64,000 nt of DNA, taken from the NCBI GenBank assembly GCA_964016885.1, contig OZ024742.1, positions 133,858,001-133,922,000 on the forward strand, in the 5' to 3' direction. A program made the translations under genes and the position numbers. Of the stretch, positions 1,938-43,800 are shown piece after piece. This stretch comes from Eledone cirrhosa (lineage: Eukaryota). The notes beneath the pieces were generated by a model, which searched no databases, was not told the origin of the DNA, and saw only the letters and a program-made list of their open reading frames with translations. Position 1 is the first letter of the stretch. Every line of letters begins with the position of its first letter.

Positions 1938-4551
1938 TATGTGTGTGTGTGTGTGTATGTGTGTGTGTGTGCGTGTGTGTGTGTACACCATTTCCACTGC
2001 CTCGGTAGCCAGAGTCACCGTTCATGCCGCCATATATATTCATTACTGTAGCTTTACCGAACAATAAACACTTTTCTTCCTAATTGGACGTAATCAGACA
2101 TACAATGGAAACTACTAAACAACTGACCGATCTATGGACTTTATTATTCTTGCTGCTGTCGTTATGTTTTCGGTTGTTATTGTTGCTGGTGTTGGAGTTG
2201 TTGTTTAGCCACAGGTCTTCTCTCGTCGAGCGAGGTTCTTATCAAGTATTCTATCTATAACCATTGCGTCCTTTCACGGGCATCACACTCCGCGAGTTAT
2301 ATTACTAAATTTCTATATGCCAGGAGCCGAGGAGGGGTGCAGTTTCAGGGAGAATACAGGATATGTTCAGCAGATAGAGTTATCATGTATTCGTTTGTTT
2401 TTATTTTCGATGCAGCTGATAATAATGTTGTTGAGTAGCCCCATATCAGTATTCACTGAGGCTATATGGATTTATCCCTGTTTGCCATGTCCATGTGCAT
2501 CATTTTATATGTAATACTTGTCATGCCCATGTGCATCAGTTTATATTTACTACTATAAACGTAATGGAAACTTAATTAGCTGAAGCGTTTGAGTGCAGTG
2601 TATGAAGTTCGGATGCTACTACAATAAGAACGAGTGTATGAGTGTCCAAATGAGTTAAAACCAATCTAACCGATTTAGATTCAAATAGATTGCAGCTGTG
2701 GACACAGCATTTTAGTTTACAGGTACATATGTAATACAAACTACATGTTTATATGTAACTTTTTAACAGAAGAAAGATGAAAAGAATATTGTCTATTATA
2801 TCTAACAATGGACCTGATAATAACTTTCCTAAGCGATGTTATGTTACTAACCGCATTTCTGAATCGTCATGTGTAAGAAATGTCCATGTTTGAGTCTATT
2901 TTTTAAGAGGGCTGTTTATTTTAACTGGGATTAAATGACATATTTGCTGTGAAACATGTAGGTAATTCTGTAAATGTAGTGATGGTTCTACAGTTGTTAT
3001 TTAAGCCTAGGTCAGTCATGATTTTTACACTTATAATCACAGCTCTTCTAATCAACCGTGATAACGCTTCTTTCTGTAAATTAAAAACACAATTTTCTAA
3101 TGTGTTGTTAACATATATCACAATAGGATGTTATTTGAAGCGCTATTTGGTTACAATTTCCTGTAGGTCCAACAAACATCTATAGACTTTCCGGCGAGAG
3201 TATATTAATGGCGACATAAGATTTGCTGTTTTTTTAGATCCCAGGTATTTTTGAGGGATCAGAATCGTGATCAAGATTATGCTTGTTACAACAATCCTAT
3301 AGTTTTTTTCAAACATTATCTATGTAGACAGAATGCGTTTAATTTCAAGTGGAAGGGTGTAATTTGAGGTGGACTTCGCTACATTTTTGAGTAGATGTTT
3401 GATATTTTGAGGTGTAGGTTAATTGTTTCTAATTACAAAATGTTATATTAGTGACTAATATAACATGTTGTAATATTGTGTGGGTGAGTTTGGACATGGT
3501 GGTGGTCAACTATCATAATGAAAACGACACTGTTTTTATGGTTCAATCTGAAAGGTGCACAGATTCCACGGATGTATGATCAAAGCATTACAGACATGAT
3601 AAGCTTTTATGACCATATACTAAATTAACCCTATTGTTAATTCCTTTCTATGTGTAACTCTTAGAGGGATGTTTTAAATGTTCTTTCAAATGTGTCGAGT
3701 AACGCTATAGAGCTTCCCTTTTGGTAGAGAAATGAAATGATACTGGTGCTAATTTTTTGTTCAATTAATTATTGTTTGTCTCGTTCAGATGATATAGTGA
3801 CTGTTTACAATTTGATGATAATTTCTTGGTAATGAAGTTATAGTTATAGTAATGATATGTCTGCCAGTTATTTAGTGATGGTAATTGATGCTCATGTTGT
3901 TCTTATTCATATTATTTTTTTTTTATTTTAGTTCCATACCACCACTAATTGAGGAGAACGTTTATAACCCTTCCAGTTATGATCATTCTGCCAATTTTAT
4001 GTCAATATATAATTACAAAGTCTTGTCTGGTGATGCTGCAATTGCTGCTGAACTTGTTGTTGTCGTTTAGCCCCTGATCATACTTGACTGACCATATATA
4101 TGGTGGAAGACATTTCTTTTATGACAAGCCCACCTTTTCTTATGCACCACACGAAACGTGTATCGTCGTTATCCATCGAGACCTGTGTACATGTGTTATT
4201 TAGAATAGTTTAGGTTGTTATTTTCTTGGAAGATTGAATAACAGAATATAGGCTACTTATTCCTCTCATTGATTTTTTAAAGTCGCATTTGGCAATTATT
4301 TCCAACATTGTGATCCAAAACATAGAGGCTAAATTCTTTATCCTAATAGTGGTACCAACAACATGTATATGAACTAATGCTGGAAATATTGGCTCTCATT
4401 GACAGTATGGTTGATCGAAAACATTGGCAATCAATGGTTGCTTTTAAAATCTATTTAGAAATATTCATCTTTGGGTCGTATTCGAAGCACATGCGATAAA
4501 GGAACTAAAGAATTGAAATCTGAAGTATCGAAAGTTTTAACATGTTTAAAT

Positions 4552-6069: not shown

Positions 6070-9000
6070 ATAAAAATTTATTAAAATAACAGACTAAATG
6101 TTAAGCAAAGAATGGCTTCTTTCACCCTTAACGGGATCTTCTGAAACTAAAAAAATCAATCTGTCAACGCAGAAGTAAATATTTCGAAAACGTTGCAACC
6201 GAAGGAAGACAGGAAGACAATACTTTGGTTCGTGGAAACGTTGCCTGGCAAAGAACGGGAAAAAACGAAGATAATACGTCATTATTTGGAGGGCTGAAAA
6301 CAATTACACGCAAAGACCAAACCATGTTTATGGTATAAATGAAGTCGTAGACTAATATTCTATTAGGTGGTTCGTGGAGACATTCTCTTGCAATGAACCG
6401 AAAAAAACTAAGATAATACGTTATTATGTTGAGCGTGGAGAACAATTACACGCAAAGACAAAACCACGTTTATGGTATAACGGAAGTCGTAGACTAAAAT
6501 TCTATTTAGGAAACCGAATGATTCTCGGCTTCAGAGGTAAGAATATTGTAAATAAATTACAGAGGTAATTGAAATTAACAAAAATTAAATATATACACGC
6601 ACGCATCCATATACGTGCATACATATGCATACGCGAAAACACCGGCCATGGGTATGCAAATACAAGCACGTACACAAAAAAACACAATAAAACACGCACG
6701 CACGTACAGAACCCACGCTACGCCTGTACCCGCACACATACGAACGTATACACCAAATACACATATACATATATATTAGAATATTTATATATATATATAT
6801 GTGTGTGGGTGTGCGTGTATACATATAATTATATAAACGTATATAAATATACACACATAAATACGTATATAACGCGTGCACACACATACCTACATGTAAA
6901 TACACATATGTTCGCTAAACGAACGTCAACTAAAACACAAAGTACATATATACACACCCTACATACGTACGAACCCGCATACTCACACAGACGCAAAACT
7001 CACGTATACACATAACCATATGCACATATACCAGTATATATAATATAATATATACGCCTATAACATATACAAACAAATATACGTACGAAAAAGTATACGT
7101 ACCTTCACAAAACATACAGGTAATATATACTTACCTATACAAATAAGTAATGGTATGAACATAACATATACTTAGCTACCACATCAATACGTAAAATATC
7201 CGCGTATAGTTTGTACTACCCGTTAGGGTATACTGTGGGGCTGTAATACCGGAAAGAATTGTGCAATTTATGTTTACAAGCCGATTTTGCCTCAGAAATT
7301 TTGTTTAAGATATGGTCTTTGGCGTAGAGTATTTCCATGGATTCAGCGGTCTTTTATTTCGGTTATACGATCTAGGCCTAGCTAGGATCTCCCAGTGTAA
7401 CTTAGATTGAATGTGGTTGTCTTTTGGACTCCAGATAAAAGCTGAATGTGACTTCATATTCCTTCTTAAGGAGTTAAGAAAAGAATGGCTATGCATGTAA
7501 AGGCGCTGCTTGAATCTATTGAGGTAGACGTAGTAAAAGGAATTTAGATAGAATTATACCTGAAATTAGAAGTTTGGCTCCTCTTGAATTCTGGAACTAT
7601 TCTTTCGCGGTGATTGATTGGTTCAACCGCATATGCAACAAGGAACATTGCCGTTTTATCCAATTCGACATTAATAATTACTACTCCTCCATTGCATTAC
7701 CTCTTCTTCTTAAAGCAATCAATTTCGCTAAAACACACACAGTGGTCAAGGTTTTCGAAGTTGATGTCATCCTAAATGCCCGTAAGTCGGTGATTAATTT
7801 CGACGACTCTATTTGTATAAAAAAATCTAATAGTAACCCATTCGATGTGAGTATGGGCGGCAGCGATTCTGCGGAGGTTACTGATCTTATCGGCCTTTTC
7901 ATTCTTTTCTCTATCAAGGTAGAATTCCCCAACGTGGGTGGTGGTTTGAACGGCGATGACGATCTTTTGACCATGACAAAGTGCGGCCTACGTGCTTCCG
8001 ACAGGTTCAGAAAAGAACTCACAGCCTTCTTTAAATGATTCAACCACTCCATACAGGTTGAAGCCAACCTCTCGGTCGTTAATTACTTCGACGTTACCCT
8101 CAATTTGTCGAATGGCTTGCCCTACCCCTATAGAAAGCCGAATGATACGCTTAATTACATAAGTAAGCATTCTAACCATCCTGCCAGCATAACAAGAACC
8201 TGGTATGAAACGTTTCTTTGAGGCTTTCCAGTCTATCTAAAAACGAGCATAATTTCACCGACCATTACACATATTACAACGAAGCTCTTGCTCTGAGTGG
8301 ATTTGTCGATAATGTAGCATATACAGAGTATGAGAATAGACCTAGGAAAAATAGATCCCGACGCATTATATGGTATAACCCACCTTATAATATGGAGGTG
8401 GACACACCATTAGCTAAGATCTTTCGCTCCCTTATTATGAATCATTTCCCCCCAGCACATAAATATAGTAAAGCTATTAATAGAAATACAATTAAAATGT
8501 CTTACTCTACGACTCCTAACCTTGCACATAACATCACAGCTTCAAATTTGGCCACATTACCTAACCGTAGGAACACGTGCAACCCTGTAGCTAGTACTAA
8601 CTGTAATTGTAGGAAGCGGGTTGACTGCATCTATCCGTGAAATGTCTCTATAGCAACATTGTCTACAAATTTAAGGTTGAAACACCTACATAGGGCCTAC
8701 ATAAGGTTAACCGCCAATAGATTCAAGCAGCGTCTTTACATGCATACCCATTACTTTCTTAACCCCTTAAGAAAATATGACGTTACTTTCAGCTTATATC
8801 TGGAGTCGAAACGACGACCACACCCCATATAAGTTACACTGGGAGATCCTGGTTATGCCTAGATCGTATAACCGAAATAAAAGACCGCTGAAGCCCTAGA
8901 AATACTCTAGGCCAAAGACCATATCTTAAACAAAAAATCTGAGGCAATTTCGGCTTGTAAACATAAATTGCACAAAACTTTCCTGTATTACAGCCCCACA

Positions 9001-19771: not shown

Positions 19772-19777
<6 letters not shown>

Positions 19778-20400
19778 TTAATTATACTATTTATGGTTAT
19801 GTAAATACAAAAACCTTTTGCAGTTATATATATTTTTATACAAACCCTAAATAGTGGTAGGCACTAATATATTACTACCTTATTACCAGTAAGTTAAGTA
19901 GCTCAATGTAAAAACATCAGATGATTTACAGAGGAGTTATATGAAATATAAGAATCAAAGAACTGTTCAAACATTTTTATGCTTACAACTGTTTCTTCCA
20001 AACCGAGGTTTGGATTCTTCGGAGCAATTTATTAATGCATGAACACTTATATGACCTCCTTTTCACCCAAGAGACATACAGATACATATGCAAATATTGT
20101 GGGTCAACATTCATTACAGCATTTAGAGTGGCAATATTGTGGGTCAACATTCATTACAGCATTTAGAGTGGCAATAGACACTTACATATTACATTCATAT
20201 TAAAAGATACAATCAAAAATACAGTTTAAAATACAACATGAAAATAAGCGGTTATATAGTGCAAAGGTTATATGTGTGGCAAGCACATGCGTCTTGTTTA
20301 TATAGTGTGGCAGAGAGTTACGTGTAGTAGAAGCACTTAAGTAGGTCAACAAGAGTGTTAGGTTGGTTGTTCTGGTGATAAATTCTTTATATGATTGTTA
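19772..20400 (-). mobile_element. Older 5'-truncated copy of the PLE family 1 3' end
   Basis: Diverged match to about 30517-31130 with the same 3' end in (TA)n. The HHR at 19980-20028 keeps the CCGAAGA core. Confidence 0.9.
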
Positions 20401-28497: not shown

Positions 28498-28540
28498 ATG
28501 TATATATGTGTATATATGTGTATATATGTCTATATATATA

Positions 28541-30255
28541 ATGCTGTAACTAGGGATTACCGTAAAACTAATCGGTGCGTCATCAATGAAATCAACGATG
28601 CTGGGTTTAAAATAACATCTGATCTCAACATCCTGGACCGGACCGAACCTCTGGACCCTATTTCTCCCCACTCTACCTTGAAGGATCACAAATCCAATTT
28701 TCCGAACAACCCCTCTATTCGGCTTATTAATCCTACGAAGTCCGATTTAGGTAGACTTAGTAAAACGATTCTTGATAGAATTATACCTGAATTATACCTG
28801 AAATTAGAAGTTTGTCCCCTCTTGCACTGTGGAACAATTCTTTCGCGGTGATTGATCTGTTCAACGGCATAGGTAACAAGGAACATTGCCGTTTTATCCA
28901 ATTCGACATCAACAATTACTACTCCTCCATCACTTTACCACTTCTCCTTAGAGCTATCAATATCGCTAAAACACTCACAGTGTTTAAGGATTTCGAAGTT
29001 GATGGCATCCTCAATGCCCGAAAGTCGGTGATTAATTTCGATGACTCTATTGGGATTAAACAATCCAATAGTACCCCATTCGACGTGAGTATGGGCGCCA
29101 GTGATTCTGCGGAGGTTACTGATCTTATCGGCCTTTCCCTTCTTTTCTCTATGAAGGACGAATTCCCCAACGCGGGCGGTGGTTTGTACCGTGACGATGG
29201 TCTTTTGACCATGACTAAGTGCGGACCTCGTGCTTGCGACAGGTTCAGAAAAGAACTCACTGCCTTCTTTAAAGGCTTCAACCTCTCTATACAGGTTGAG
29301 GGCAATCTCTCGGTCGTTAATTACCTTGACGTTACCCTCAATTTATTGAATGGGTTGTTATTACCCGTATAGAAAGCCGAATGATACGCTTAATTACATA
29401 AGTAAGCATTCCAACTATCCTGCCAGCATAACCAAGAACCTGGTAAGGAACGTTTCGTTGAGGCTTTCCCGTCTTTCCACCAACGAGCGTATTTTCAACG
29501 ACCATTCCACTTATTACAATGAAGCTCTTGCCCGAAGTGGATTTGTCGATAAGGTAGCATATACATAGTACGTAAATAGACCTACAAGAAATAAATCCCG
29601 ACGCATTTGTTGGTATAACCCACCATATAATATGGAGGTGGCCACACCATTAGCTAAGATCTTTCTTTCCCTTATTACGAAGCATTTTCCCCTTACACAT
29701 AAATATAGTAAAATCTTTAATAGAAATACTATTAAAATTTCTTATTCTACGACTCCTAACCTTGCACATAACATCACAGATTCAAATTTAGCTAAACTAC
29801 CTAGCCGTAGAAACACGTGCAACCCTGTAGTTAGTACTAACTGTAATTGTAGGAATCGGGCTGATTGCCCCCTTTCCGGGAAATGCCTCTCTAGTAACAT
29901 TGTCTACAAATGTATGGTTATAATACCCACGTCCCGTGGGGCCTACATGGGGTTAACCGCCAATAGATTCAAGCAGCGTCTTTACACGCATACCCATTCT
30001 TTTCGTTACCCTCTAAGAAGGAATATGACGTCACTTTCAGCTTATATCTGGAGTCTAAAAGACAACCACACCCAATATAAGTTACACTGGGAGATACTAG
30101 CTAGGGCTAGATCGTATAACGGAAATAAAAGACCATGTGACCTCTACGCCACAGACCACATCTTAAACAAAAAATCTGTGGCAATTTCGGCTTGTAAACA
30201 TAAATTGCACAAAACTTTCCTGTATTACAGCCCCACGTTTTACCCTAACGGATAG
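28541..30255 (+). pseudogene. PLE RT-GIY-YIG pseudogene (family 2)
   Basis: TLKDHK, RLINPTKSDLG, FIQFDI, SMGASDS, LYRDD, CNCRNRADCPLSGKCL, IVY..YMG and FKQRLYTH motifs. Lesions: 11-bp duplication near 28780-28800, frameshift near 29360, stop at 29566. Confidence 0.92.
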
Positions 30256-30417
30256 TACGATCTATACGTGGATATTTTACGTCTTGATGTGGGAACTAAG
30301 TTTATGTTTTGTTTATACCATTACTTATTTGCATAGCGAATGTTTCCACGAACCAAAGTATCGTCTTCCTGTCTTCCTCCGGTTGCAACGTTTTTTGAAA
30401 TATCCACTTCTGCGTTT

Positions 30418-30493
30418 ACAGATTGACTTTGCTAGTTTCAGAAGATCCCTTTAAGGGTGAAAGCAGCGATTCTTTGCTTAAACTTTAATCTGT
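30418..30493 (+). ncRNA. Type I HHR variant (CAGAAGA core, CUU cleavage triplet)
   Basis: Stem I AGTTT/AAACT, extended by ACAGATTGA/TTAATCTGT; stem II CCCT/AGGG; GAAA; stem III GCAG/TTGC. Other copies at 6089-6165, 9829-9904, 19649-19725 and 47437-47497. Confidence 0.72.
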
Positions 30494-30719
30494 TATTTTA
30501 ATATATATATATATATATAGTATTAGTTATACTATTTATGGTTATGTAAACACAAAACCTTAAGCAGTTGTAAGTATTTTACACACACCCTAAATAGTGG
30601 TAGGCAGTAATGTATTACTACCTTATTACCAGTAAGTTAAGTAGCTCAATGTAAAAACATCAGATGATTTACAGAGCAGTTATATGAAATATAAGAATCA
30701 AAGAACTGTTCAAAACATT

Positions 30720-30772
30720 ATTGTGCTTACAGCTGTTTCCTCCAAACCGAGGTTTGGATTCTTCGGAGCAAT
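30720..30772 (-). ncRNA. Minimal type I HHR (CCGAAGA core) in unit A pseudo-LTR
   Basis: attgct-CCGAAGA-aTCCAAACCtcGGTTTGGAg-GAAA-CAGCTG-TA-agcacaat. Predicted cleavage between 30728 and 30727. AATAAA lies immediately upstream. Confidence 0.8.
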
Positions 30773-32213
30773 TTATTAATGCATGGACAGTTATATGACC
30801 TCCTTTTCAGCCGAGAGACAAACCAATACATATTCAAACATTGATACATATTCAAACATTGTGGGTCAACATTCATTACAGAATTTAGAGTGGCAGTACA
30901 CACTTCGAGATTACATTTATATTAATAGGTACATTCAAAAATCAAAGATATATGTTAAAGTACAACATGAAGATAAGTGGTTATATAGTGCAAATGTTAT
31001 ATGTGTGGCACGCATGTGCGTCTTGTTTATATAGTGTGGCAGAGAGATATGTGTGGTAGAGGCACTTAGGTAGGTAAATAAGAGTGTTAGGTTGGTAGAT
31101 CTGGTGGCAAAGTCTTTATATGATTGATGTAGTCTGTGTGTGGAGAAATATTATAAGCATTAAAGATAGTGCAAGCATTAAAAGTGTTATAAGTATTGGA
31201 GATGCACAGCGCAGGGATGTCAAGTAATTCATGTACTTCGGCATTTTCATGGTCAAGGGAGTGTATATTTCGATTATATGCCTTTCACATAATCCACGAC
31301 AATCCAGTTAGAGATCGTAGTCTGGTGTTCTTTAGTTCGATACAGGAGGTTGTTACGTTTCGAGAGACGCCATTGAATACCGGAAGTGTGTGTGTGGCTA
31401 AGGGGAGTTAATGCATGCGGGGAGGTAACTCTGGGGTTTCTATATCTAGCCATTAAAATGTGTCCCAATATAGACCCTAAATTCTATGGTGAGGTGCACC
31501 TTCCAAGAGAGACTTTTAAAGCATAAAGTGTACTAACTATAGAGTAGTTTAACTAAATTATGCTGAAGGTGATCATATTATTATTAAGGTGGATTAACCC
31601 ATCTTAAGGTGCTACAAATGGAAATTATAGATGATGAGCGAGGATTCTAAATTAATGATCTCTGTGGTTGTAGTCTGCTCATATGACCAGGCGCGGTGAT
31701 TGCAGGATTGCTTCAGGACCCGATGATCTCTGGTAAGATCTGGGTCATCGCTTGCTACATTGGATGTCGAAAGATAATCGTCCCCAGGCAGGCCAAAGGT
31801 CAATCCGCAGTCCTCGCGACCTCTCTCTGACCGTCAGATCATCCATATACGTACAACCCGCACGGCAGTTGCATTGCATTCACTCACTGCGCTCAGCAGC
31901 CCGGTCCTACTGGTCAACAGCGCTACTCGATTAAATCATTTTACATCTGTCTAAGGAAGGTGTTTCCTCTGCCCAACACCATCCAACCGATCAATTCATG
32001 CTCAAATTACCCTTAGAGCGGTGTAGTGCCGTCCAGGTGGGTGGATGTTGTCACACCTGCCGTAGAGGTATAAATGGGTATTTTCCCTGCGAAGGGTTCC
32101 AGAGGGATGTCGTTGTTTGTGTTATAATGGATCAGCTAGTGTTGGGTATGTAGTATAGGGTGTGTCTCTGGTGTTTGATGCTAGATGTGGTGTTAGGTTC
32201 CAGTCCGACATTG

Positions 32214-34674
32214 CTATATATAGGGCTTAAAGTTTTGGAAGGAATGTCTGAGGCGGTGCTGGCAAGTTGCAAACACCTCAGATTTTTTGTTAAGTAGGTT
32301 ACGGTTGGAGAAGATAATATTGTGTGTCTCTAGTATACAGAGGTTACAGAATTTATTAGGTGGTTTGTACGAGGTCGCGCTGCCTATCACTTCCCAATTG
32401 AGTGTGTATGGTTTATTTTTAGATTTTAGATAGTGTATGTAGCTAGAAAGTGAGGTGGAGTTGGCTAGGCTGTGCTTTTTGAACGAGTGGATGTGCGAGT
32501 TATATCTAATTTTGAAGCAGTTAGAAGTGGAGCCTACATAGGTTTCTGAAGAGTTATTAGTCGTGACTGTGCATGAGTATATGACATCCTTGGTTAGGCA
32601 TTTTTTATCTAAAGGGCAGGTTCTATTAGCTCTACAGTTACAATTATTCTGTGCGTTAGTCCGCTGGTTATAATGCAATGCGGAAGTCTGTGTGGTGGAT
32701 ATAGGATTTTGGGTGTTCAGGTTGACAACCCTGGTGTTATTACTTATACTAGTGTTATTTCTATTGTTACTGCCGTTGCTATTGTTGCTTGCTACAGTGG
32801 TATTTAGAGGGTTTGCATCCCGTTGTGATTTTGTTTGTTGGAAGTAAGAACTAATTTTACTATTATTGCTGCTAGCTATGTGGTATGCTAAGTTAGGCGT
32901 CGTAGAGTATGAGATTTTAATGGTGTTTTTGTTTAAGAGGTTGTGGTACTTGTGTCCTAGAGGGAAGTTTTTATCTAGTAGTGAGAAGAAAGCCCTAGGT
33001 ATGTTGGTGGAGACATTTAGGTTGAAAGGAGGGTTGAAAAATGTATTATTTCTTCTTCTATTTTTGCTTTTAGTGTTTGGTGTGTTGCTTCCTCCTAAGG
33101 CCTCACAGTAGTTTCCATGGTAATGGTTACTTCCGGTGGCACCCTCCGCTTTGGTGTACTTGTGGTTGCTATTCCTATTATTAGATTTCCTCATGGACAT
33201 GTTGTGCGAGATGATGTTGTAGCTATGTGTTTTCTTAGGTAGGAACTCTATTTCTATATTATGGCCGGAGCTAGCTAATGCTTGATTGTAATATTGTGAG
33301 TTTTTGCTAAATATGTTTGCGTCATAGGACAGACTAGAGATTCTATTGGACACCCCCTTAGCGATAGAGTTTAATATTGATCTAGGGTGATTAGACTTGG
33401 TATCTACGTAAATAAGTTTCTCATTAGGCTTATGGAAAGGTGTATATATTTTTGAGTCTAGGTATAGTGTGGCGTCTAGGAAGTTAACATTTTTAGTGTT
33501 TTTGTCCATGGTGATACTAAGGTTAAAGTTTTTGAATGTCTTATGCAGTTGTTTTCTAGTTCTTTCTATATTAAATTTTTTATATTCTATGAGTAGAAGT
33601 GCATCATCGCGGTACAAACCACCGTTGAGGTAAGGGAGGTCTTTATGGATTTCATTGAGGAGGTATAGGCCGACCAAATTAGTGACCTGCGCCGAGTCAC
33701 TAGATCCCATGGTTATGTCGAAGTTGTTGTGCGTATCCTTGCGTGTCCATAGTTGGTCCTCGAAGGTGATTATGGTTTTACGGGCCGCAAGGATGACATC
33801 AACCTGAGCTCTAGTCAGGTCGCTATTGGTCATGGCCATGATAAGTGCCTTATTTAATAGGATAGGGGAAATAGAGGTGTAGTATGAATTGATATCAAAT
33901 TGAATAAATTTTTTGTTCTTATTATTCTTGATATCCTTAAACCATTCAATTACTTCACCCGTATTTCCCCATTGTTTAATGTGTATCTTGTGTTTAATTT
34001 GTGGGATGATTTTATCCAAAATCTTCTTGCTGATAATACCAATGTCGGACTTGGAAGGGCAGATAAGTCTTATCGTGGGGTTGCTGATGAAGTTCTCCTT
34101 ATGGTCCTTCAGAGAGAATCTAGGGGGGTTCGGAGTGAAAGGTTGTGTATGCCTCTGTAGTCCTAGTTTAGACACTATATTATAACCCTCTACATTAATA
34201 TCTTCTAAGTTTTTCAAGGTGGTTTTTTTTGTAGCTTTTATGTAGTTCATTATATATAAACTTTCTATAAGTAATATAATCTAGGCTGTATATGTTATTA
34301 GTTTTATCTGCGTGTACAATAATTTTATTACTAGTTTTGAATCCACTAATAGAAGTGTTAAGTTTGTTTAAGAAGGTGTTGCTTCTAATATGGTGCTTAT
34401 TGTATTTAATGTTCTTAACTAGTTTAACTAGGTCATTTTCAAAGGAGTTGAGTAGAGTGTTATGAGGGGGGCTTTTAAAGGTTTTAAAGCCGAAGGAGTC
34501 AAAATTGTTAGTATTATTCAAGTTGTTAGATTTGTTTCTATCATAATGGAATGTCCTCCATCTCACTCTATTGATAAATGAATTTACACTGTTGATCAGC
34601 AATTTCTCATATGTATTCCTGGATGGTATTGGTATGTTCTTGGTTGACATGGGGAGTTGGTCTTTGATTAGCAT
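32214..34674 (-). pseudogene. PLE RT-GIY-YIG ORF, unit A, one frameshift
   Basis: Near-identical to the 819-aa ORF but split by one extra base in a homopolymer (T8 at 34223-34230 versus T7 in unit B). Confidence 0.9.
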
Positions 34675-34919
34675 ATTGGCAATATTATATGTCAGCTCAA
34701 CGATATGGAGCAGTTAATAGTATTAGTTATACTATTTATGGTTATGTAAACACAAAACCTTAAGCAGTTGTAAGTATTTTACACACACCCTAAATAGTGG
34801 TAGGCAGTAATGTATTACTACCTTATTACCAGTAAGTTAAGTAGCTCAATGTAAAAACATCAGATGATTTACAGAGCAGTTATATGAAATATAAGAATCA
34901 AAGAACTGTTCAAAACATT

Positions 34920-34972
34920 ATTGTGCTTACAGCTGTTTCCTCCAAACCGAGGTTTGGATTCTTCGGAGCAAT
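34920..34972 (-). ncRNA. Minimal type I HHR (CCGAAGA core) in unit B pseudo-LTR
   Basis: Identical to 30720-30772. Confidence 0.8.
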
Positions 34973-36413
34973 TTATTAATGCATGGACAGTTATATGACC
35001 TCCTTTTCAGCCGAGAGACAAACCAATACATATTCAAACATTGATACATATTCAAACATTGTGGGTCAACATTCATTACAGAATTTAGAGTGGCAGTACA
35101 CACTTCGAGATTACATTTATATTAATAGGTACATTCAAAAATCAAAGATATATGTTAAAGTACAACATGAAGATAAGTGGTTATATAGTGCAAATGTTAT
35201 ATGTGTGGCACGCATGTGCGTCTTGTTTATATAGTGTGGCAGAGAGATATGTGTGGTAGAGGCACTTAGGTAGGTAAATAAGAGTGTTAGGTTGGTAGAT
35301 CTGGTGGCAAAGTCTTTATATGATTGATGTAGTCTGTGTGTGGAGAAATATTATAAGCATTAAAGATAGTGCAAGCATTAAAAGTGTTATAAGTATTGGA
35401 GATGCACAGCGCAGGGATGTCAAGTAATTCATGTACTTCGGCATTTTCATGGTCAAGGGAGTGTATATTTCGATTATATGCCTTTCACATAATCCACGAC
35501 AATCCAGTTAGAGATCGTAGTCTGGTGTTCTTTAGTTCGATACAGGAGGTTGTTACGTTTCGAGAGACGCCATTGAATACCGGAAGTGTGTGTGTGGCTA
35601 AGGGGAGTTAATGCATGCGGGGAGGTAACTCTGGGGTTTCTATATCTAGCCATTAAAATGTGTCCCAATATAGACCCTAAATTCTATGGTGAGGTGCACC
35701 TTCCAAGAGAGACTTTTAAAGCATAAAGTGTACTAACTATAGAGTAGTTTAACTAAATTATGCTGAAGGTGATCATATTATTATTAAGGTGGATTAACCC
35801 ATCTTAAGGTGCTACAAATGGAAATTATAGATGATGAGCGAGGATTCTAAATTAATGATCTCTGTGGTTGTAGTCTGCTCATATGACCAGGCGCGGTGAT
35901 TGCAGGATTGCTTCAGGACCCGATGATCTCTGGTAAGATCTGGGTCATCGCTTGCTACATTGGATGTCGAAAGATAATCGTCCCCAGGCAGGCCAAAGGT
36001 CAATCCGCAGTCCTCGCTACCCCTCTCTGACCGTCAGATCATCCATATACGTACAACCCGCACGGCAGTTGCATTGCATTCACTCACTGCGCTCAGCAGC
36101 CCGGTCCTACTGGTCAACAGCGCTACTCGATTAAATCATTTTACATCTGTCTAAGGAAGGTGTTTCATCTGCCCAACACCATCCAACCGATCAATTCATG
36201 CTCAAATTACCCTTAGAGCGGTGTAGTGCCGTCCAGGTGGGTGGATGTTGTCACACCTGCCGTAGAGGTATAAATGGGTATTTTCCCTGCGAAGGGTTCC
36301 AGAGGGATGTCGTTGTTTGTGTTATAATGGATCAGCTAGTGTTGGGTATGTAGTATAGGGTGTGTCTCTGGTGTTTGATGCTAGATGTGGTGTTAGGTTC
36401 TAGTCCGACATTG

Positions 36414-38873
36414 CTATATATAGGGCTTAAAGTTTTGGAAGGAATGTCTGAGGCGGTGCTGGCAAGTTGCAAACACCTCAGATTTTTTGTTAAGTAGGTT
36501 ACGGTTGGAGAAGATAATATTGTGTGTCTCTAGTATACAGAGGTTACAGAATTTATTAGGTGGTTTGTACGAGGTCGCGCTGCCTATCACTTCCCAATTG
36601 AGTGTGTATGGTTTATTTTTAGATTTTAGATAGTGTATGTAGCTAGAAAGTGAGGTGGAGTTGGCTAGGCTGTGCTTTTTGAACGAGTGGATGTGCGAGT
36701 TATATCTAATTTTGAAGCAGTTAGAAGTGGAGCCTACATAGGTTTCTGAAGAGTTATTAGTCGTGACTGTGCATGAGTATATGACATCCTTGGTTAGGCA
36801 TTTTTTATCTAAAGGGCAGGTTCTATTAGCTCTACAGTTACAATTATTCTGTGCGTTAGTCCGCTGGTTATAATGCAATGCGGAAGTCTGTGTGGTGGAT
36901 ATAGGATTTTGGGTGTTCAGGTTGACAACCCTGGTGTTATTACTTATACTAGTGTTATTTCTATTGTTACTGCCGTTGCTATTGTTGCTTGCTACAGTGG
37001 TATTTAGAGGGTTTGCATCCCGTTGTGATTTTGTTTGTTGGAAGTAAGAACTAATTTTACTATTATTGCTGCTAGCTATGTGGTATGCTAAGTTAGGCGT
37101 CGTAGAGTATGAGATTTTAATGGTGTTTTTGTTTAAGAGGTTGTGGTACTTGTGTCCTAGAGGGAAGTTTTTATCTAGTAGTGAGAAGAAAGCCCTAGGT
37201 ATGTTGGTGGAGACATTTAGGTTGAAAGGAGGGTTGAAAAATGTATTATTTCTTCTTCTATTTTTGCTTTTAGTGTTTGGTGTGTTGCTTCCTCCTAAGG
37301 CCTCACAGTAGTTTCCATGGTAATGGTTACTTCCGGTGGCACCCTCCGCTTTGGTGTACTTGTGGTTGCTATTCCTATTATTAGATTTCCTCATGGACAT
37401 GTTGTGCGAGATGATGTTGTAGCTATGTGTTTTCTTAGGTAGGAACTCTATTTCTATATTATGGCCGGAGCTAGCTAATGCTTGATTGTAATATTGTGAG
37501 TTTTTGCTAAATATGTTTGCGTCATAGGACAGACTAGAGATTCTATTGGACACCCCCTTAGAGATAGAGTTTAATATTGATCTAGGGTGATTAGACTTGG
37601 TATCTACGTAAATAAGTTTCTCATTAGGCTTATGGAAAGGTGTATATATTTTTGAGTCTAGGTATAGTGTGGCGTCTAGGAAGTTAACATTTTTAGTGTT
37701 TTTGTCCATGGTGATACTAAGGTTAAAGTTTTTGAATGTCTTATGCAGTTGTTTTCTAGTTCTTTCTATATTAAATTTTTTATATTCTATGAGTAGAAGT
37801 GCATCATCGCGGTACAAACCACCGTTGAGGTAAGGGAGGTCTTTATGGATTTCATTGAGGAGGTATAGGCCGACCAAATCAGTGACCTGCGCCGAGTCAC
37901 TAGATCCCATGGTTATGTCGAAGTTGTTGTGCGTATCCTTGCGTGTCCATAGTTGGTCCTCGAAGGTGATTATGGTTTTACGGGCCGCAAGGATGACATC
38001 AACCTGGGCTCTAGTCAGGTCGCTATTGGTCATGGCCATGATAAGTGCCTTATTTAATAGGATAGGGGAAATAGAGGTGTAGTATGAATTGATATCAAAT
38101 TGAATACATTTTTTGTTCTTATTATTCTTGATATCCTTAAACCATTCAATTACTTCACCCGTATTTCCCCATTGTTTAAGGTGTATCTTGTGTTTAATTT
38201 GTGGGATGATTTTATCCAAAATCTTCTTGCTGATAATACCAATGTCGGACTTGGAAGGGCAGATAAGTCTTATCGTGGGGTTGCTGATGAAGTTCTCCTT
38301 ATGGTCCTTCAGAGAGAATCTAGGGGGGTTCGGAGTGAAAGGTTGTGTATGCCTCTGTAGTCCTAGTTTAGACACTATATTATAACCCTCTACATTAATA
38401 TCTTCTAAGTTTTTCAAGGTGGTTTTTTTGTAGCTTTTATGTAGTTCATTATATATAAACTTTCTATAAGTAATATAATCTAGGCTGTATATGTTATTAG
38501 TTTTATCTGCGTGTACAATAATTTTATTACTAGTTTTGAATCCACTAATAGAAGTGTTAAGTTTGTTTAAGAAGGTGTTGCTTCTAATATGGTGCTTATT
38601 GTATTTAATGTTCTTAACTAGTTTAACTAGGTCATTTTCAAAGGAGTTGAGTAGAGTGTTATGAGGGGGGCTTTTAAAGGTTTTAAAGCCGAAGGAGTCA
38701 AAATTGTTAGTATTATTCAAGTTGTTAGATTTGTTTCTATCATAATGGAATGTCCTCCATCTCACTCTATTGATAAATGAATTTACACTGTTGATCAGCA
38801 ATTTCTCATATGTATTCCTGGATGGTATTGGTATGTTCTTGGTTGACATGGGGAGTTGGTCTTTGATTAGCAT
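36414..38873 (-). CDS. Penelope-like reverse transcriptase with C-terminal GIY-YIG endonuclease, 819 aa, intact
   Basis: ADKTNN, SLKDHK, IQFDINSYY, ITMGSSDS, LYRDD, NFLD, SNHP, FNPPF, CNCRANRTCPLDKKCL, VIY..YVG, FKIRYNSH, CNLCILE and CQH motifs. Confidence 0.96.
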   Translation of the reverse strand: MLIKDQLPMSTKNIPIPSRNTYEKLLINSVNSFINRVRWRTFHYDRNKSNNLNNTNNFDSFGFKTFKSPPHNTLLNSFENDLVKLVKNIKYNKHHIRSNTFLNKLNTSISGFKTSNKIIVHADKTNNIYSLDYITYRKFIYNELHKSYKKTTLKNLEDINVEGYNIVSKLGLQRHTQPFTPNPPRFSLKDHKENFISNPTIRLICPSKSDIGIISKKILDKIIPQIKHKIHLKQWGNTGEVIEWFKDIKNNKNKKCIQFDINSYYTSISPILLNKALIMAMTNSDLTRAQVDVILAARKTIITFEDQLWTRKDTHNNFDITMGSSDSAQVTDLVGLYLLNEIHKDLPYLNGGLYRDDALLLIEYKKFNIERTRKQLHKTFKNFNLSITMDKNTKNVNFLDATLYLDSKIYTPFHKPNEKLIYVDTKSNHPRSILNSISKGVSNRISSLSYDANIFSKNSQYYNQALASSGHNIEIEFLPKKTHSYNIISHNMSMRKSNNRNSNHKYTKAEGATGSNHYHGNYCEALGGSNTPNTKSKNRRRNNTFFNPPFNLNVSTNIPRAFFSLLDKNFPLGHKYHNLLNKNTIKISYSTTPNLAYHIASSNNSKISSYFQQTKSQRDANPLNTTVASNNSNGSNNRNNTSISNNTRVVNLNTQNPISTTQTSALHYNQRTNAQNNCNCRANRTCPLDKKCLTKDVIYSCTVTTNNSSETYVGSTSNCFKIRYNSHIHSFKKHSLANSTSLSSYIHYLKSKNKPYTLNWEVIGSATSYKPPNKFCNLCILETHNIIFSNRNLLNKKSEVFATCQHRLRHSFQNFKPYI

Positions 38874-39044
38874 ATTGGCAATATTATATGTCAGCTCAAC
38901 GATATGGAGCAGTTAATAGTATTAGTTATACTATTTATGGTTATGTAAACACAAAACCTTAAGCAGTTGTAAGTATTTTACACACACCCTAAATAGTGGT
39001 AGGCAGTAATGTATTACTACCTTATTACCAGTAAGTTAATATAT

Positions 39045-39114
<70 letters not shown>

Positions 39115-39116
39115 TA

Positions 39117-39705
39117 ATTGGTCGTTTTGGAAGCCTCAACAATGCAGATGGGTAAATCGCCGGGTAACAGAATCAGCTGGTAATGAGAGAGATGTAAGAG
39201 GAAATGTAGAATGAAACGTAAAGTGTGTAGAGGGACGTAGGAAAGAGTGTAAACATAATTGTTTCTACGTTTGGCACAAGCCAGCAATTACCCAGAGCAT
39301 TACTTGTACTTTATTTTATCGACCTCGAAATGATGAAAGACAAAGTTAACCTCGGCGGAATTGTGAAGAGTGTAACAATAATAACACGTGTTAGAGTTAC
39401 CTTGGAAGTGATTTAATTGAACCTATATTTCGGATTTCGCCTCCATCAACTGAGGGTTTTCCGAGGGGGGAAAGTTTTTAGTCGGAGAGGAACAACACCT
39501 GGCCTCTGCTGTCTAAGCCCCAGTTGATGGATATGAAATCCGAAATATTAAATCACTTCCAAGGTAACTCAATCTCGTGTTATTATTTTTACACTCTATA
39601 CGTCTCATTCTACATTTCCTCTTACATCTCTCTCATTACCACCTGATTCTGTTACCCGAAGATTTACCCCTCTGCATTGTTGAGGCTTCCAAAACGACCA
39701 ATTTT
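39117..39705. repeat. Foldback element with a truncated SINE (39257-39362) inserted in its left arm
   Basis: 39117-39255 and 39365-39455 are inverted copies of about 39515-39705. The SINE is flanked by an AAGAGTGTAA duplication. Confidence 0.75.
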
Positions 39706-40768
39706 ATTTTTCCACAATGCTTCAAGCACACTTCAACACTCTCTTATATATATATATACTTGCTTATGTCCGTTGGTAGTGGGACGTACTCCGAATGTAC
39801 GTCCGTGTTACTTAACTTGGTATCGGTCTTAAGATTTTTATCATTTTTTATACTCGGAAGAACACATCTATATTTGAGTTTCTATTCGTCGTAATTCTAG
39901 TCCCATACGCACATTGTCCTTAATTTAGTGCAAATATTATTTCAGGGGCGTCTATTATTTTTCCTGACACTTTTCAATGTTTTACATCATCCCATCTTTT
40001 GTTTTTATATATCTTTCAGATAGAGGAATAGAGACAAATATAGTGTGTGACAGAGAGAGACGGGGGAAGAGAGAGAGAGAGCTAGATAGAGAGAGGGGGG
40101 AAATAGAGAGAGAGAGAGAAATAGACAGATAGGCGATAGAAAGAGAGGTAGGGAGAGAGAGAGAAGGTGGGAGAAAGAGAGACTAATGTTGAGTGTGTCT
40201 TCAATGAAGGAAAGATAGGAAAACGTGCGATGAGGATAAAATACGTTTTAAACACAAACGGAAATCCAATTTGCTTTTTCCACTACGATCCCAAGTATGA
40301 TATGTAACAACACACTTTTGACGCATTCGGTGGAACAAATACACAACACCACTTATAGTTTAGACGGCTCTAGCTATTTGCGAGAGAGAAAAGAATAAAC
40401 AAAAATGCTTAATACAACATTGTTTCGACAAAATAAGACAATACATTGTGAAGAAAACAAAATATCTAATAACATATCTACAATAACCCGACAACTGTTG
40501 AGGAAAAAAATAACATGTACGATATAGATCGACATTTCGAATATAATACAAAATACATGTGTGTAGGTGAGAAAATGCTGAACAATTTACCTTTACGTTT
40601 TAGAATGAAGAATAAGTTATACCTTTGATGTTTATTACAGAGCATCAGGTAAAAAAAGTATGATTGTTAAAAAATACATTTCTAGAATGTATGTAAATAC
40701 TTATCTTTTCCCATTTCTTAGAGGGTTTTAAACCACGCCACGATAAGACTAGAATTTCTTCAGTGAAA

Positions 40769-40817: not shown

Positions 40818-43800
40818 AACAAGTAGGACCCCGACGGCTGAGCTCAAGCCGTTTCCACGAGTAATTCTGGACTAAATAAAAAATGTTAGCCTGGTAAATG
40901 AATAGCCGAACTTCTCAGGGGGTAATTCCATATATGGTAAAAATGATTGTCACAAGGATTGGTCAAAAGGTTGTTGTTAAGATATATGATTCTATCATGG
41001 CATTTTGTGGAAGGAAGGGGTAGCTGAACTTGCCAGTTGAAGAAAAAGGGACAGGGAGTTGAGGAAACCCAGTCAAGCGTTGAAAGTGAAAAATACAGCA
41101 GATTCTAAGGATAGTGTATAGAAGGTCGAAAAAAGTATAATAGAGAAGGGGAGGGGGGAGTGAGTTGAAACAATAAGTAAATCTAAAGGGAGTAAACAAA
41201 AAAGTCATTATAAAAATGAGGAAATATATAAAAATTATATAAAAAAATATAAAAAACAATTTCTGATTACTACTCCCCTTCCACAATCATCAAATCTCTG
41301 ACTGGTACTGCTAAGCTGTAGAAGGAGCTATAGAAATGGACGACAAACGAGAGACAAAATTCATCCAGTTTGACATAGAGAGTTACTATGCTTCAATTAC
41401 CTTACCGCTCCTTACGGCCGCCTTGGACTTTGACGAGCCACTCGCGCCCATCACCGACCAGGAAAGAAATATCATCCTCCACGCCAGGAAGACAGTCCTA
41501 CTTTTCGACAACTGCAAATGAATAAAGAGAGCTCCCGACTCCCCGTTCGACGTCAGTATGGGTGCGACTGATTCGGCTAAGGTCACAAATCTTATAGGAT
41601 TATTCCTACTATTTAAACTCACCGATATGTCTCCTGCATTCGGCGGTGGATTGTACCGTGATGATGGGCTCCTTACCCTCAAAGGGTACAACCCCAGGAG
41701 TACAGACCGGGTCCATAAACAATTAATCAGCTTCTTCCGCGACTGGGGATTTAAAATAACCTTACAAACGTCCCTAACCCGAGTAAACTTCCTGGACGTT
41801 ACCCTTAACCTCGATAACGATCTGAACTACCCATACAGGAAACCAAACGACAACCTGAACTACATCCACCGCCGGTAGAACCATCCTAGAAACATCACAA
41901 ATTACCTGGATAAAAACATCTCCCTTCGCATATCTCGTTTTTCCGCTAATGAGCAGATATTCGAGGAACATGCGCCTTATTACAACCAGGCCCTCAAGCG
42001 GAGTGGCTTCCGGGAGGAAATATCCTATTATCCAGCTTCCATGAGCGGAACGAACAGGCGACACCGCCACTCACGCAACGTAACGTGGTTCAATTCTCCC
42101 CACAATGCCGAGATCACAACACCTATCGGGAAAATCTTCTTTAGGCTCATCGAAAAACACTTCCCACTACAACACCGCTACCACAACATAATCAACAAAA
42201 ACAGTATCAAACTCTCCTACAGCACCACACCTTACTTTGCACAAAACATCGTATCCTCTAACAACAATAAACTCAACCCCCATGGAAGAAATAAACTAGA
42301 TAGCAGTGGAGAGCAGACCAGGTGGTGTATCTGTCCTGATGGATACCTTTGCCCCCTCGACAAGAGATGCAGATATCGTAATGTGGTCTACAAGAGCAAC
42401 GTGAGGGCGGACACTTCCAACAAAGCTATATAGGATTAACCGCTTGTGACTTCAAGACTCGGCTCTACCAACACAGACATACTTTCCGGAACCCGGCCCG
42501 GCGTCACGCCACTACACTTTCGGGCCACATCTGGGACCTCAAAGATAATAATATAACCTACAATCTCACTTGAAGCTTACTGTCTAGAGCCAACTCTTAC
42601 ACGGAGGGACGCCGTCTGTGTAACTTATGCTCGGAGGAAACATTACAAATACTGTTTTCGACGGACCAACTCCTAAGCAAGAAAGACGAACTGGTAACTG
42701 CATGCAAACACAGATTGCGTAGAACTTACCTCGCCCACAAACCCAATAATGACCCCCTGGGGTAGGCGAGGGCTGAACCACCCCACTTGCCGACTTTGTA
42801 AGGGGTAACCCTTGCTTACAAAGGTAGACGTAACTGTTTTTTATATTCTTTTTTATATATTTTTTATCGTCTCCTCTATATTTCCTTCTTCCACCCATCC
42901 CTTCCTAGTCCTTCCACCCCAGATCTCCTTCTTTGTCGTCGTTCTTTTCACCTTCTGGCTCACCCTGATGCAGGCTTTCAGTCCACTCTAGCCTCAGTAC
43001 TCCCCCCCCCCCCTTATGTTATGATATAATTGGCCGATTCCGCTTTTTATAGCAGATGTGCTAGACCCCAGATACTTGCTTTCTTCTCCGGTTGCTGCTC
43101 CTTTTCTGTGATTTCTATATTTCTTAGTTGTATTTCTGCTTTAGTTTCTTGTATACTAGTATTTATTTTCGGGGGATTCTGAATTAATATTTCGTATTAG
43201 TTTTTCATATATATTGTACGAGTATTTATGTAGATTGTATTAGAATTTATTTATTGTAGCAGCATTTATATATATTGTATTAGTTTTTTTTTAGTTTTTA
43301 TATTTATTGTATGAGTATTTATATAGATTGAATTATAATTTATGTATTGTAGGAGTACTTTTATATATTTTGTTTTAGTATTCATGTTACGGTATTCTGA
43401 ATTAATATTTCGCATTAGTTTCGGGAACCTGAATTAATATTTCGTATTAGTTTTTTTTAGTATGTTGTTCCTCAACTTATTAACCTGCCATTGTAAGATA
43501 GCATTGGCTGATTACTACTAATCATCGTAGTGGTGATAGATACCCTGTAATGATGGCCTGATAAAATTATTTCACTACAATCTCGTATTTAGTATTCCTT
43601 CCCACCTATTAAACTTTTCTATAGCTTAGCAGTACCAGTGAGAGATTTGATGATTGTGGAAGAGGAGTAGTAAGCAGAAATAATTTTTTAAATATTTTTT
43701 TTATATATTTTTTATATATGTTTTATATCTTTCCTCATTTTTATAATGACTTTTTTGTTTACTCCCTTTAGATTTACTTATTGTGTCAACCCCCTCCCCC

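Follow-up and report, generated by a model that had tools for sequence, protein, structure and literature searches.

A locus of Eledone cirrhosa in which a Penelope-like element (PLE) stands in more than two head-to-tail units raises the question of how such a concatemer is made. We studied it in a window, i.e., the whole analysed stretch of 64,000 nucleotides (assembly GCA_964016885.1, contig OZ024742.1, positions 133,858,001-133,922,000 of the forward strand), whose coordinates are used here. The layout was that claimed in the first-pass annotation: unit A (4200 bp), unit B (4199 bp) and a third piece of 124 bp followed one another with no spacer (2.03 units) between (TA)n flanks. The two units were 9 substitutions and 1 indel apart, and the 124-bp piece was identical to both. 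The element is oriented on the minus strand, so that the 124 bp form its 5'-most, truncated piece. Unit positions (q) are numbered from unit B, with q1 at 38915 and q4199 at 34717. The reading that we favour, with a probability of about 0.48, is twin priming on one RNA that one arm copied twice over, most likely as a ribozyme-made circle. The 2.03-unit locus proves little alone; the evidence is carried by its family, in which the window concatemer is the long tail of an ordinary process. The parts of the locus were the following:

30517..34716, minus strand: unit A, the full unit copied first, with a frameshifted open reading frame (ORF) and a 1.7-kb 3' untranslated region (UTR)
34717..38915, minus strand: unit B, the second full unit, with a seamless junction to unit A
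38916..39039, minus strand: third piece of 124 bp, the 3' end of a unit, 5'-truncated and without hammerhead
30517..30527, minus strand: fixed end A (q4199), putative priming site of the window arm, followed by (TA)n
30681..30693, minus strand: motif of fixed end B (q4035), 164 nt inward from end A, putative second priming site of the family
39044..39056, plus strand: 13-nt inverted stub corresponding to q4023-4035 by sequence match, likely an aborted second (B) arm
30500..30516, no strand: left (TA)n target run, from sequence, at the 3' end of an older related element
39057..39116, no strand: right (TA)n target run, from sequence

Two fixed ends and paired arms

The genome (3.0 Gb) was searched with exact patterns, which gave the counts reported here, and 197 stretches, including two duplicate pairs, were fetched and mapped on the unit. 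The last 25 bases of the unit had 1231 matches, 131 of them at seamless unit junctions and about 1100 at ends (site A), and 1225 ends were found at site B (q4035), 164 nt from site A. The family is young, with well over a thousand copies. All 147 A ends examined were followed by TA, as were 136 of the 137 B ends, and every head-to-head pair in the fetched loci was composed of one A end and one B end (116/116). On contig 1, 138 loci were ordered by position, and among the first 63 of them 40 presented inverted A and B arms, 13 the A arm only and 10 the B arm only. The arms mostly overlapped by 1-6 nt at their join, and the last few bases were stuttered at 39 of the 137 B ends, as would fit a priming site.

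These ends, all in TA runs at the same two positions and paired A with B, suggest that priming in this family takes place at two fixed sites, one for each DNA end. Very probably both strands of the target are nicked and one primes at A and the other at B on one RNA, and the two complementary DNA (cDNA) ends would then be joined by the short microhomology. Neither the two sites nor the 13-nt stub had been noticed in the first-pass annotation, which did place the 3' end of the insert downstream of the hammerhead cut at a site able to pair with TA; the distance was 211 nt, and the internal priming that it proposed is supported.

Fold-back self-priming of one cDNA was proposed for rotifer Penelope elements (PMC3846280), and according to it the stops at the ribozyme described below would reflect RNA structure instead of cleavage. 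Some joins are indeed at palindromes (L176, L106). We regard this explanation as very improbable: among 84 pairs the B arm reached further in 43 and the A arm in 37, so that neither arm was copied from the other, and the A arm has 164 nt absent from B. Extra letters stood between the arms in L109, L112 and L114, and the stops peak at the scissile bond; this bond lies on the inner side of the stem I strand, a location at which RNA structure would not be expected to cause a pause.

Several other features of the family were recorded. Insertions of up to about 10 kb, with both arms longer than one unit, were found at L058, L156, L174-L177 and L012; they form 4-kb inverted repeats that are nearly perfect, and in several of them the ORFs of both arms are intact. 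In L073 (1892-3455) the inverted arm ends at q3598 and is followed by TTCATA-TA letters as at B ends, a possible cryptic third priming site. The 5' ends seemed clustered near 1040-1300 and 3270-3650 in the first 37 loci, which had been preselected on a 384-nt match. Between 48 and 77% of the family words were present in sequencing runs under four different organism labels, which may reflect either relatives or spread between species.

A probably single template and its reuse

The two arms of one insertion had 460 derived sites in common and 160 discordant in 84,715 sites, as compared with 1.9% difference and 0.1% sharing between unrelated loci. Paired arms stopped at most 3 nt apart in 6 of 84 pairs, where 0.30 were expected by permutation. 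Both arms of an insertion are thus likely to be copies of the same RNA.

A similar agreement was observed between rounds of copying. Sequences of the first and second rounds, compared in 68 arms that exceed one unit, shared 378 derived sites and were discordant at 130 in 50,465 sites. In age-matched triads (14,560 sites) 10 changes were found in the second round only, 11 in the first round only and 18 in the other arm only; this triad and tandem set includes 18 arms fetched afterwards as a replicate. Rounds therefore match as closely as the two arms do, which means that the template was reused, and the lack of a second-round excess in the triads indicates routine resetting of the repeats, an effect that copying an old tandem once would not have. 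Repeated rounds inside one insertion, as their sequences indicate, come from one reused template.

A single copy of an uncut read-through transcript from a pre-existing long tandem would dispense with this reuse. Uncut RNA was the main in vitro substrate for the Anolis Poseidon element (PMC11167929), and about 99% of the arms passed the cut. Repeats of such a source would age apart and transmit their differences; 7 were seen against 22 expected at an assumed inherited difference of 0.1%, the triads had no excess (10 against 11 and 18), and no other two-unit source was present among 100 listed of the 131 junctions. These results leave the read-through explanation with little likelihood.

Reuse was also apparent in L131, where a 0.5-kb deletion unit with the ribozyme and both sites occupied the two arms in 2.5 and 1.7 in-register units. 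None of the other loci scored (40 of 252 candidates) had its deletion junction, and L052 was a similar, older case. Internal-deletion derivatives were located at L131:3894-6058, L052:7832-8999 and L122:3464-7015; the 0.5-kb units of L131 and L052, which have kept the ribozyme together with both priming sites, are arranged in tandem on each of the two arms and resemble newborn retrozymes.

Hammerhead and stops at the predicted cut

The hammerhead claimed for each unit was confirmed from sequence and fold; an Rfam search gave no hammerhead match. The two motifs were:

30724..30770, minus strand: type I hammerhead motif of unit A, with U4C core and palindromic helix III, predicted cut 30728|30727
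34924..34970, minus strand: type I hammerhead motif of unit B, predicted cut 34928|34927

The motif spans q3946-3992 and includes stem I (UGCU/AGCA), the core CCGAAGA (U4C), a 7-bp stem II, GAAA, and a helix III palindrome, ACAGCUGU. The predicted cut is after q3988, at GUA, 211 nt before the 3' end of the unit.

Arms stopping at the cut were sought with a genome pattern for a mismatch just before q3989, with q3992 (3 nt inside) and q3982 (7 nt outside) as controls. The pattern gave 24 matches at the cut, 9 at q3992 and 10 at q3982, and all 43 were inspected. True arm ends numbered 16 at the cut (14 loci), 2 at q3992 and 1 at q3982 (binomial p 5e-5 by locus). Among two-armed first-round cases at the cut, the partner arm stopped at or short of it in 8 of 10, the exceptions being L106 and L111, and in three loci both arms ended at q3989-3990 with extra letters between them. 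Arms that crossed the cut had no excess of errors (7, versus 7 and 9 at the controls). These stops are most simply read as the enzyme running off a cut RNA at its 5' end, and the hammerhead probably cuts in vivo at the predicted base.

Circular or linear RNA

On a cut, unjoined RNA both enzymes would run off after 211 and 47 nt. If one RNA is primed at both sites, cut in vivo and reused, the chances are somewhat better than even that the cut-to-cut monomer is ligated into a circle, explaining the reuse; a second round would then need strand displacement and would usually abort early. Ribozyme cut, ligation and more-than-unit reverse transcription have been proposed for PLE tandems by Cervera and de la Pena (2014, PMC4209133), where PLE hammerheads are stated to be without in vivo evidence. 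The circle idea was thus already published, and what the family contributes is tests of it. From the first-pass proposal of copying from a ribozyme-processed circle, the single template, the formation at insertion (see below) and a likely in vivo cut stood; the circle was not established. A wider scheme may be put forward tentatively: the element would replicate via a circular RNA of 4.2 kb made by the ribozyme, which two enzymes would copy starting at the two ends of one DNA break, the circle would regenerate the promoter-bearing repeat in each cycle, and deletion circles of the L131 type would be retrozymes at birth.

Several observations weigh against a circle or against the cut that would produce it. 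The second junction was reached by 0 of 72 other post-cut second-round arms, as compared with 9 of 89 first-round arms (p 0.0045), and the window is the only full-unit double junction among the 100 listed of 131; second rounds appear shorter than a simple rolling-circle prediction, and the low completion could be due to strand displacement, to a ceiling on length or to the loss of long repeats. The second round of L172 stops exactly at the cut, and in L111 the B arm stops at the cut while its partner passes; both fit a linear RNA cut only upstream, and linear templates seem to be used at least sometimes. Strand transfer on a linear RNA with terminal redundancy can give the appearance of a circle. 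In L080 the second round has alleles of another lineage, an exception to template reuse, and without age matching discordance was 0.26% in tandems and 0.19% between arms. Post-cut discordance was raised in the first 50 arms (23 versus 16.3, p 0.02), an excess that was not replicated in the 18 new arms (9 versus 9.3). With regard to the cut itself, about 1% of arms and no more stop there, two control positions were used, and true ends were classed partly by eye, the script label being overridden in six cases (indels, duplication, substitution, ambiguous). L106 runs 3-6 nt past the cut and probably represents a microhomology join. The U4C change has been reported to lower hammerhead activity in vitro yet to allow viroid infectivity (PMC3088659), so that two cuts on one RNA may be rare, and for Anolis Poseidon cleavage was dispensable in vitro and none of the reads had its end at the cut (PMC11167929).

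Many of these points would be accommodated by twin priming on one linear RNA with repeated ends, generated by an upstream ribozyme cut or by transcription start in the upstream repeat, with the enzyme transferring by homology from the 5' end to the downstream repeat and resetting the repeats in a retrovirus-like manner. Second rounds that stop at the cut (L172) or near it (L140 at 3986, L145 at 3995, L137 at 3997), the case of L111, the short second rounds with none of 72 completed, the weak ribozyme core, and L080, which suggests a switch between RNAs, are all in its favour. We consider it a strong rival, if less probable than the circle. Between rounds, agreement in the stretch after the cut was about the same as elsewhere (49 derived sites in common and 32 discordant), and the discordance excess failed to replicate. 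Priming at the 5' copy would oblige every arm to transfer after 47 or 211 nt, and only about 1% stop there; L131 would take three transfers in one event.

The circle remains our preferred template. The role of PLE hammerheads and the origin of PLE tandem and inverted repeats are stated as open questions (PMC8557442, PMC4209133, PMC11167929), for which the family gives genomic signs of a ribozyme cut in vivo, of both arms coming from one RNA, and of repeats being reset in each cycle. It also names the exact bases to assay, and with its intact ORFs, its pair of priming sites and its TA target the circle could be tested directly against transfer.

Formation of the window concatemer

The window concatemer probably formed at insertion, given the B-arm stub on its far flank; the A arm would then be 8523 nt long and the B arm about 13 nt. 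Of 23 single A arms, 6 had the 8-nt core of the stub next to them, and it was absent from all 145 control flanks. Units A and B had 12 derived alleles in common, and they differed at 10 sites, 6 derived on A and 4 on B; one of the four on B was present in 7 loci of another lineage. The single indel is an extra T at 34223, which frameshifts the ORF of unit A.

Exactly the layout of the window would also be produced by later doubling of a 1.03-unit insertion, through unequal crossing-over between 124-bp repeats, or by doubling in the assembly. The window is the only such locus among the 100 listed junctions, and four of the alleles common to A and B are in no other of 171 loci. However, later doubling should favour long repeats, yet that of the window is among the shortest: repeats of at most 124 bp were 4 of 52 by count and 0.8% by length, and loci with far longer repeats (median 550 bp, maximum 3146) were undoubled. 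The unique flanks were not doubled either, and both the 4 private shared alleles and the 10 discordant sites are inside the range of two-armed loci with two near-full units (0-9 and 1-21, respectively). Doubling is, on these grounds, improbable. Four contig sets over the left flank and unit A contain the family; with repeats on both flanks, neither tandem phasing nor an empty allele was resolvable.

Protein and clade

The coding region of unit B was intact:

36414..38873, minus strand: ORF B, 819 aa, telomerase-like reverse transcriptase (RT; YRDD) with CxCx5C linker and C-terminal GIY-YIG-type endonuclease (YVG), from motifs and predicted structure

ORF B extends from an ATG at 38873 to a stop at 36414 (q43-2502) and has RWR at residue 38, DKT at 123, YRDD, CxCx5C at 678-686, CxxC at 776-779 and CxH at 804-806. 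In 34 of 34 aligned sequences (ORF B and 33 homologs) YRDD, the Y and G of the endonuclease motif VIY...YVG, and the C and H of CxCx5C, CxxC and CxH were invariant. The third letter of RW[KR] is most frequently K among homologs, and R in ORF B. The predicted structure had a predicted local distance difference test score (pLDDT) of 83.5, and its top five Foldseek matches were telomerase RTs. Pfam and PDB sequence searches of ORF B gave nothing significant, Pfam including no RT match; PF00078 was found on 1 homolog among the 120 listed and PF01541 on homolog P0039. No GIY-YIG structure was among the Foldseek matches listed for the model, and the endonuclease call rests on motifs.

According to its motifs and structural model, ORF B is the single-ORF telomerase-related RT of endonuclease-bearing (EN+) PLEs, and a GIY-YIG endonuclease appears to be present at its C-terminus. 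The hallmarks of EN+ elements were found: partial tandems with pseudo-LTRs (long terminal repeats), the inverted arm and a one-sided tail. The fit to the Hydra clade proposed in the first-pass annotation is supported by the motifs, which correspond to the marks given for that clade in PMC8557442. Residues 483-538 and 624-674 of ORF B are Asn-rich, low-confidence inserts missing from most 700-aa homologs; they recall the N-rich inserts of rotifer Penelope elements (PMC3846280).

Full ORFs were intact in 39 of 58 examined across the family, and variants in at least 3 loci were silent more often than singletons (46/89 versus 149/449, p 0.001). Both results point to many active sources, among which unit B is not special. 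It had been annotated as possibly still active: ORF B is indeed intact, which is ordinary in the family. The 124-bp piece has no ribozyme, leaving none upstream of ORF B, so that a cut-to-cut RNA of this locus would run from the cut of unit B through the frameshifted ORF A and not through ORF B.

Comparison with known systems

In L1 twin priming, primers from both target strands produce an inverted arm and a microhomology join; the position of the second primer varies, and there is hardly any overlap between the arms. The family resembles L1 in the two strand primers, the inverted arm and the microhomology join, and differs from it in its two fixed sites and in an overlap between arms that reaches 4 kb. 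A literature search, shallow for most matches and with few subscription papers, gave no report of twin priming at two fixed sites or of genomic ends at a PLE hammerhead cut.

With the Hydra clade (Hydra-1_Obim, Hydra-1_Amil; Craig et al. 2021, PMC8557442) the family shares a single ORF, a C-terminal endonuclease, RW[KR], DKT in place of DKG, CxCx5C, and CxxC and CxH around a conserved E and N. Both also have a (TA)n target and, close to the 3' end, a hammerhead whose helix III is short and self-complementary and whose cut is at GUH. The differences are its length of 4.2 kb with a 1.7-kb 3' UTR, as compared with 1.1-3.0 kb in the families listed there, its U4C core, where those Hydra hammerheads examined from File S2 of that paper all have CUGA, and the Asn-rich inserts in its ORF.

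Partial tandems, a head-to-head inverted 5'-truncated arm and a one-end extension correspond to the canonical PLE layout (PMC8557442, PMC3846280). In contrast, the extension is 164 nt in the family instead of a one-sided 30-40-bp tail, the pairing is strictly A with B, and one arm is more than two units long.

In the Anolis Poseidon PAc system in vitro (Frangieh et al. 2024, PMC11167929), initiation is likewise internal, at two sites immediately downstream of the hammerhead, cutting and extension affect both DNA strands, and the targets are AT-rich. Priming was without homology there, whereas both sites pair with TA in the family, and the lack of RNA reads at the cut contrasts with the genomic arms that pile up at it here. 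Small circles of animal non-LTR retrozymes have been shown experimentally (PMC7229834; bioRxiv 10.64898/2026.07.22.740005); those are short non-coding units, and the present element is 4.2 kb long and coding.

Other elements in the window

A decayed related PLE at 28513-30500 (plus strand; 30-44% identity to ORF B, very high read depth) ends in the TA run that received the window insertion, the two being tail to tail, and has a hammerhead-like motif near 30439-30470 with core CAGAAGA. Further decayed relics related to ORF B were located at 7532-8997 and 41315-42744 on the plus strand and at 47147-46749 and 7520-7231 on the minus strand. An older copy of the same family at 19772-20397 (minus strand, 85% identity, q3590-4199) has the same A-site end in TA. 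Directly after the right TA run, at 39112-39707, there is an element of about 600 bp with 118-bp inverted ends (93%) and an inner palindrome, part of which is repeated at eight further places in the window.

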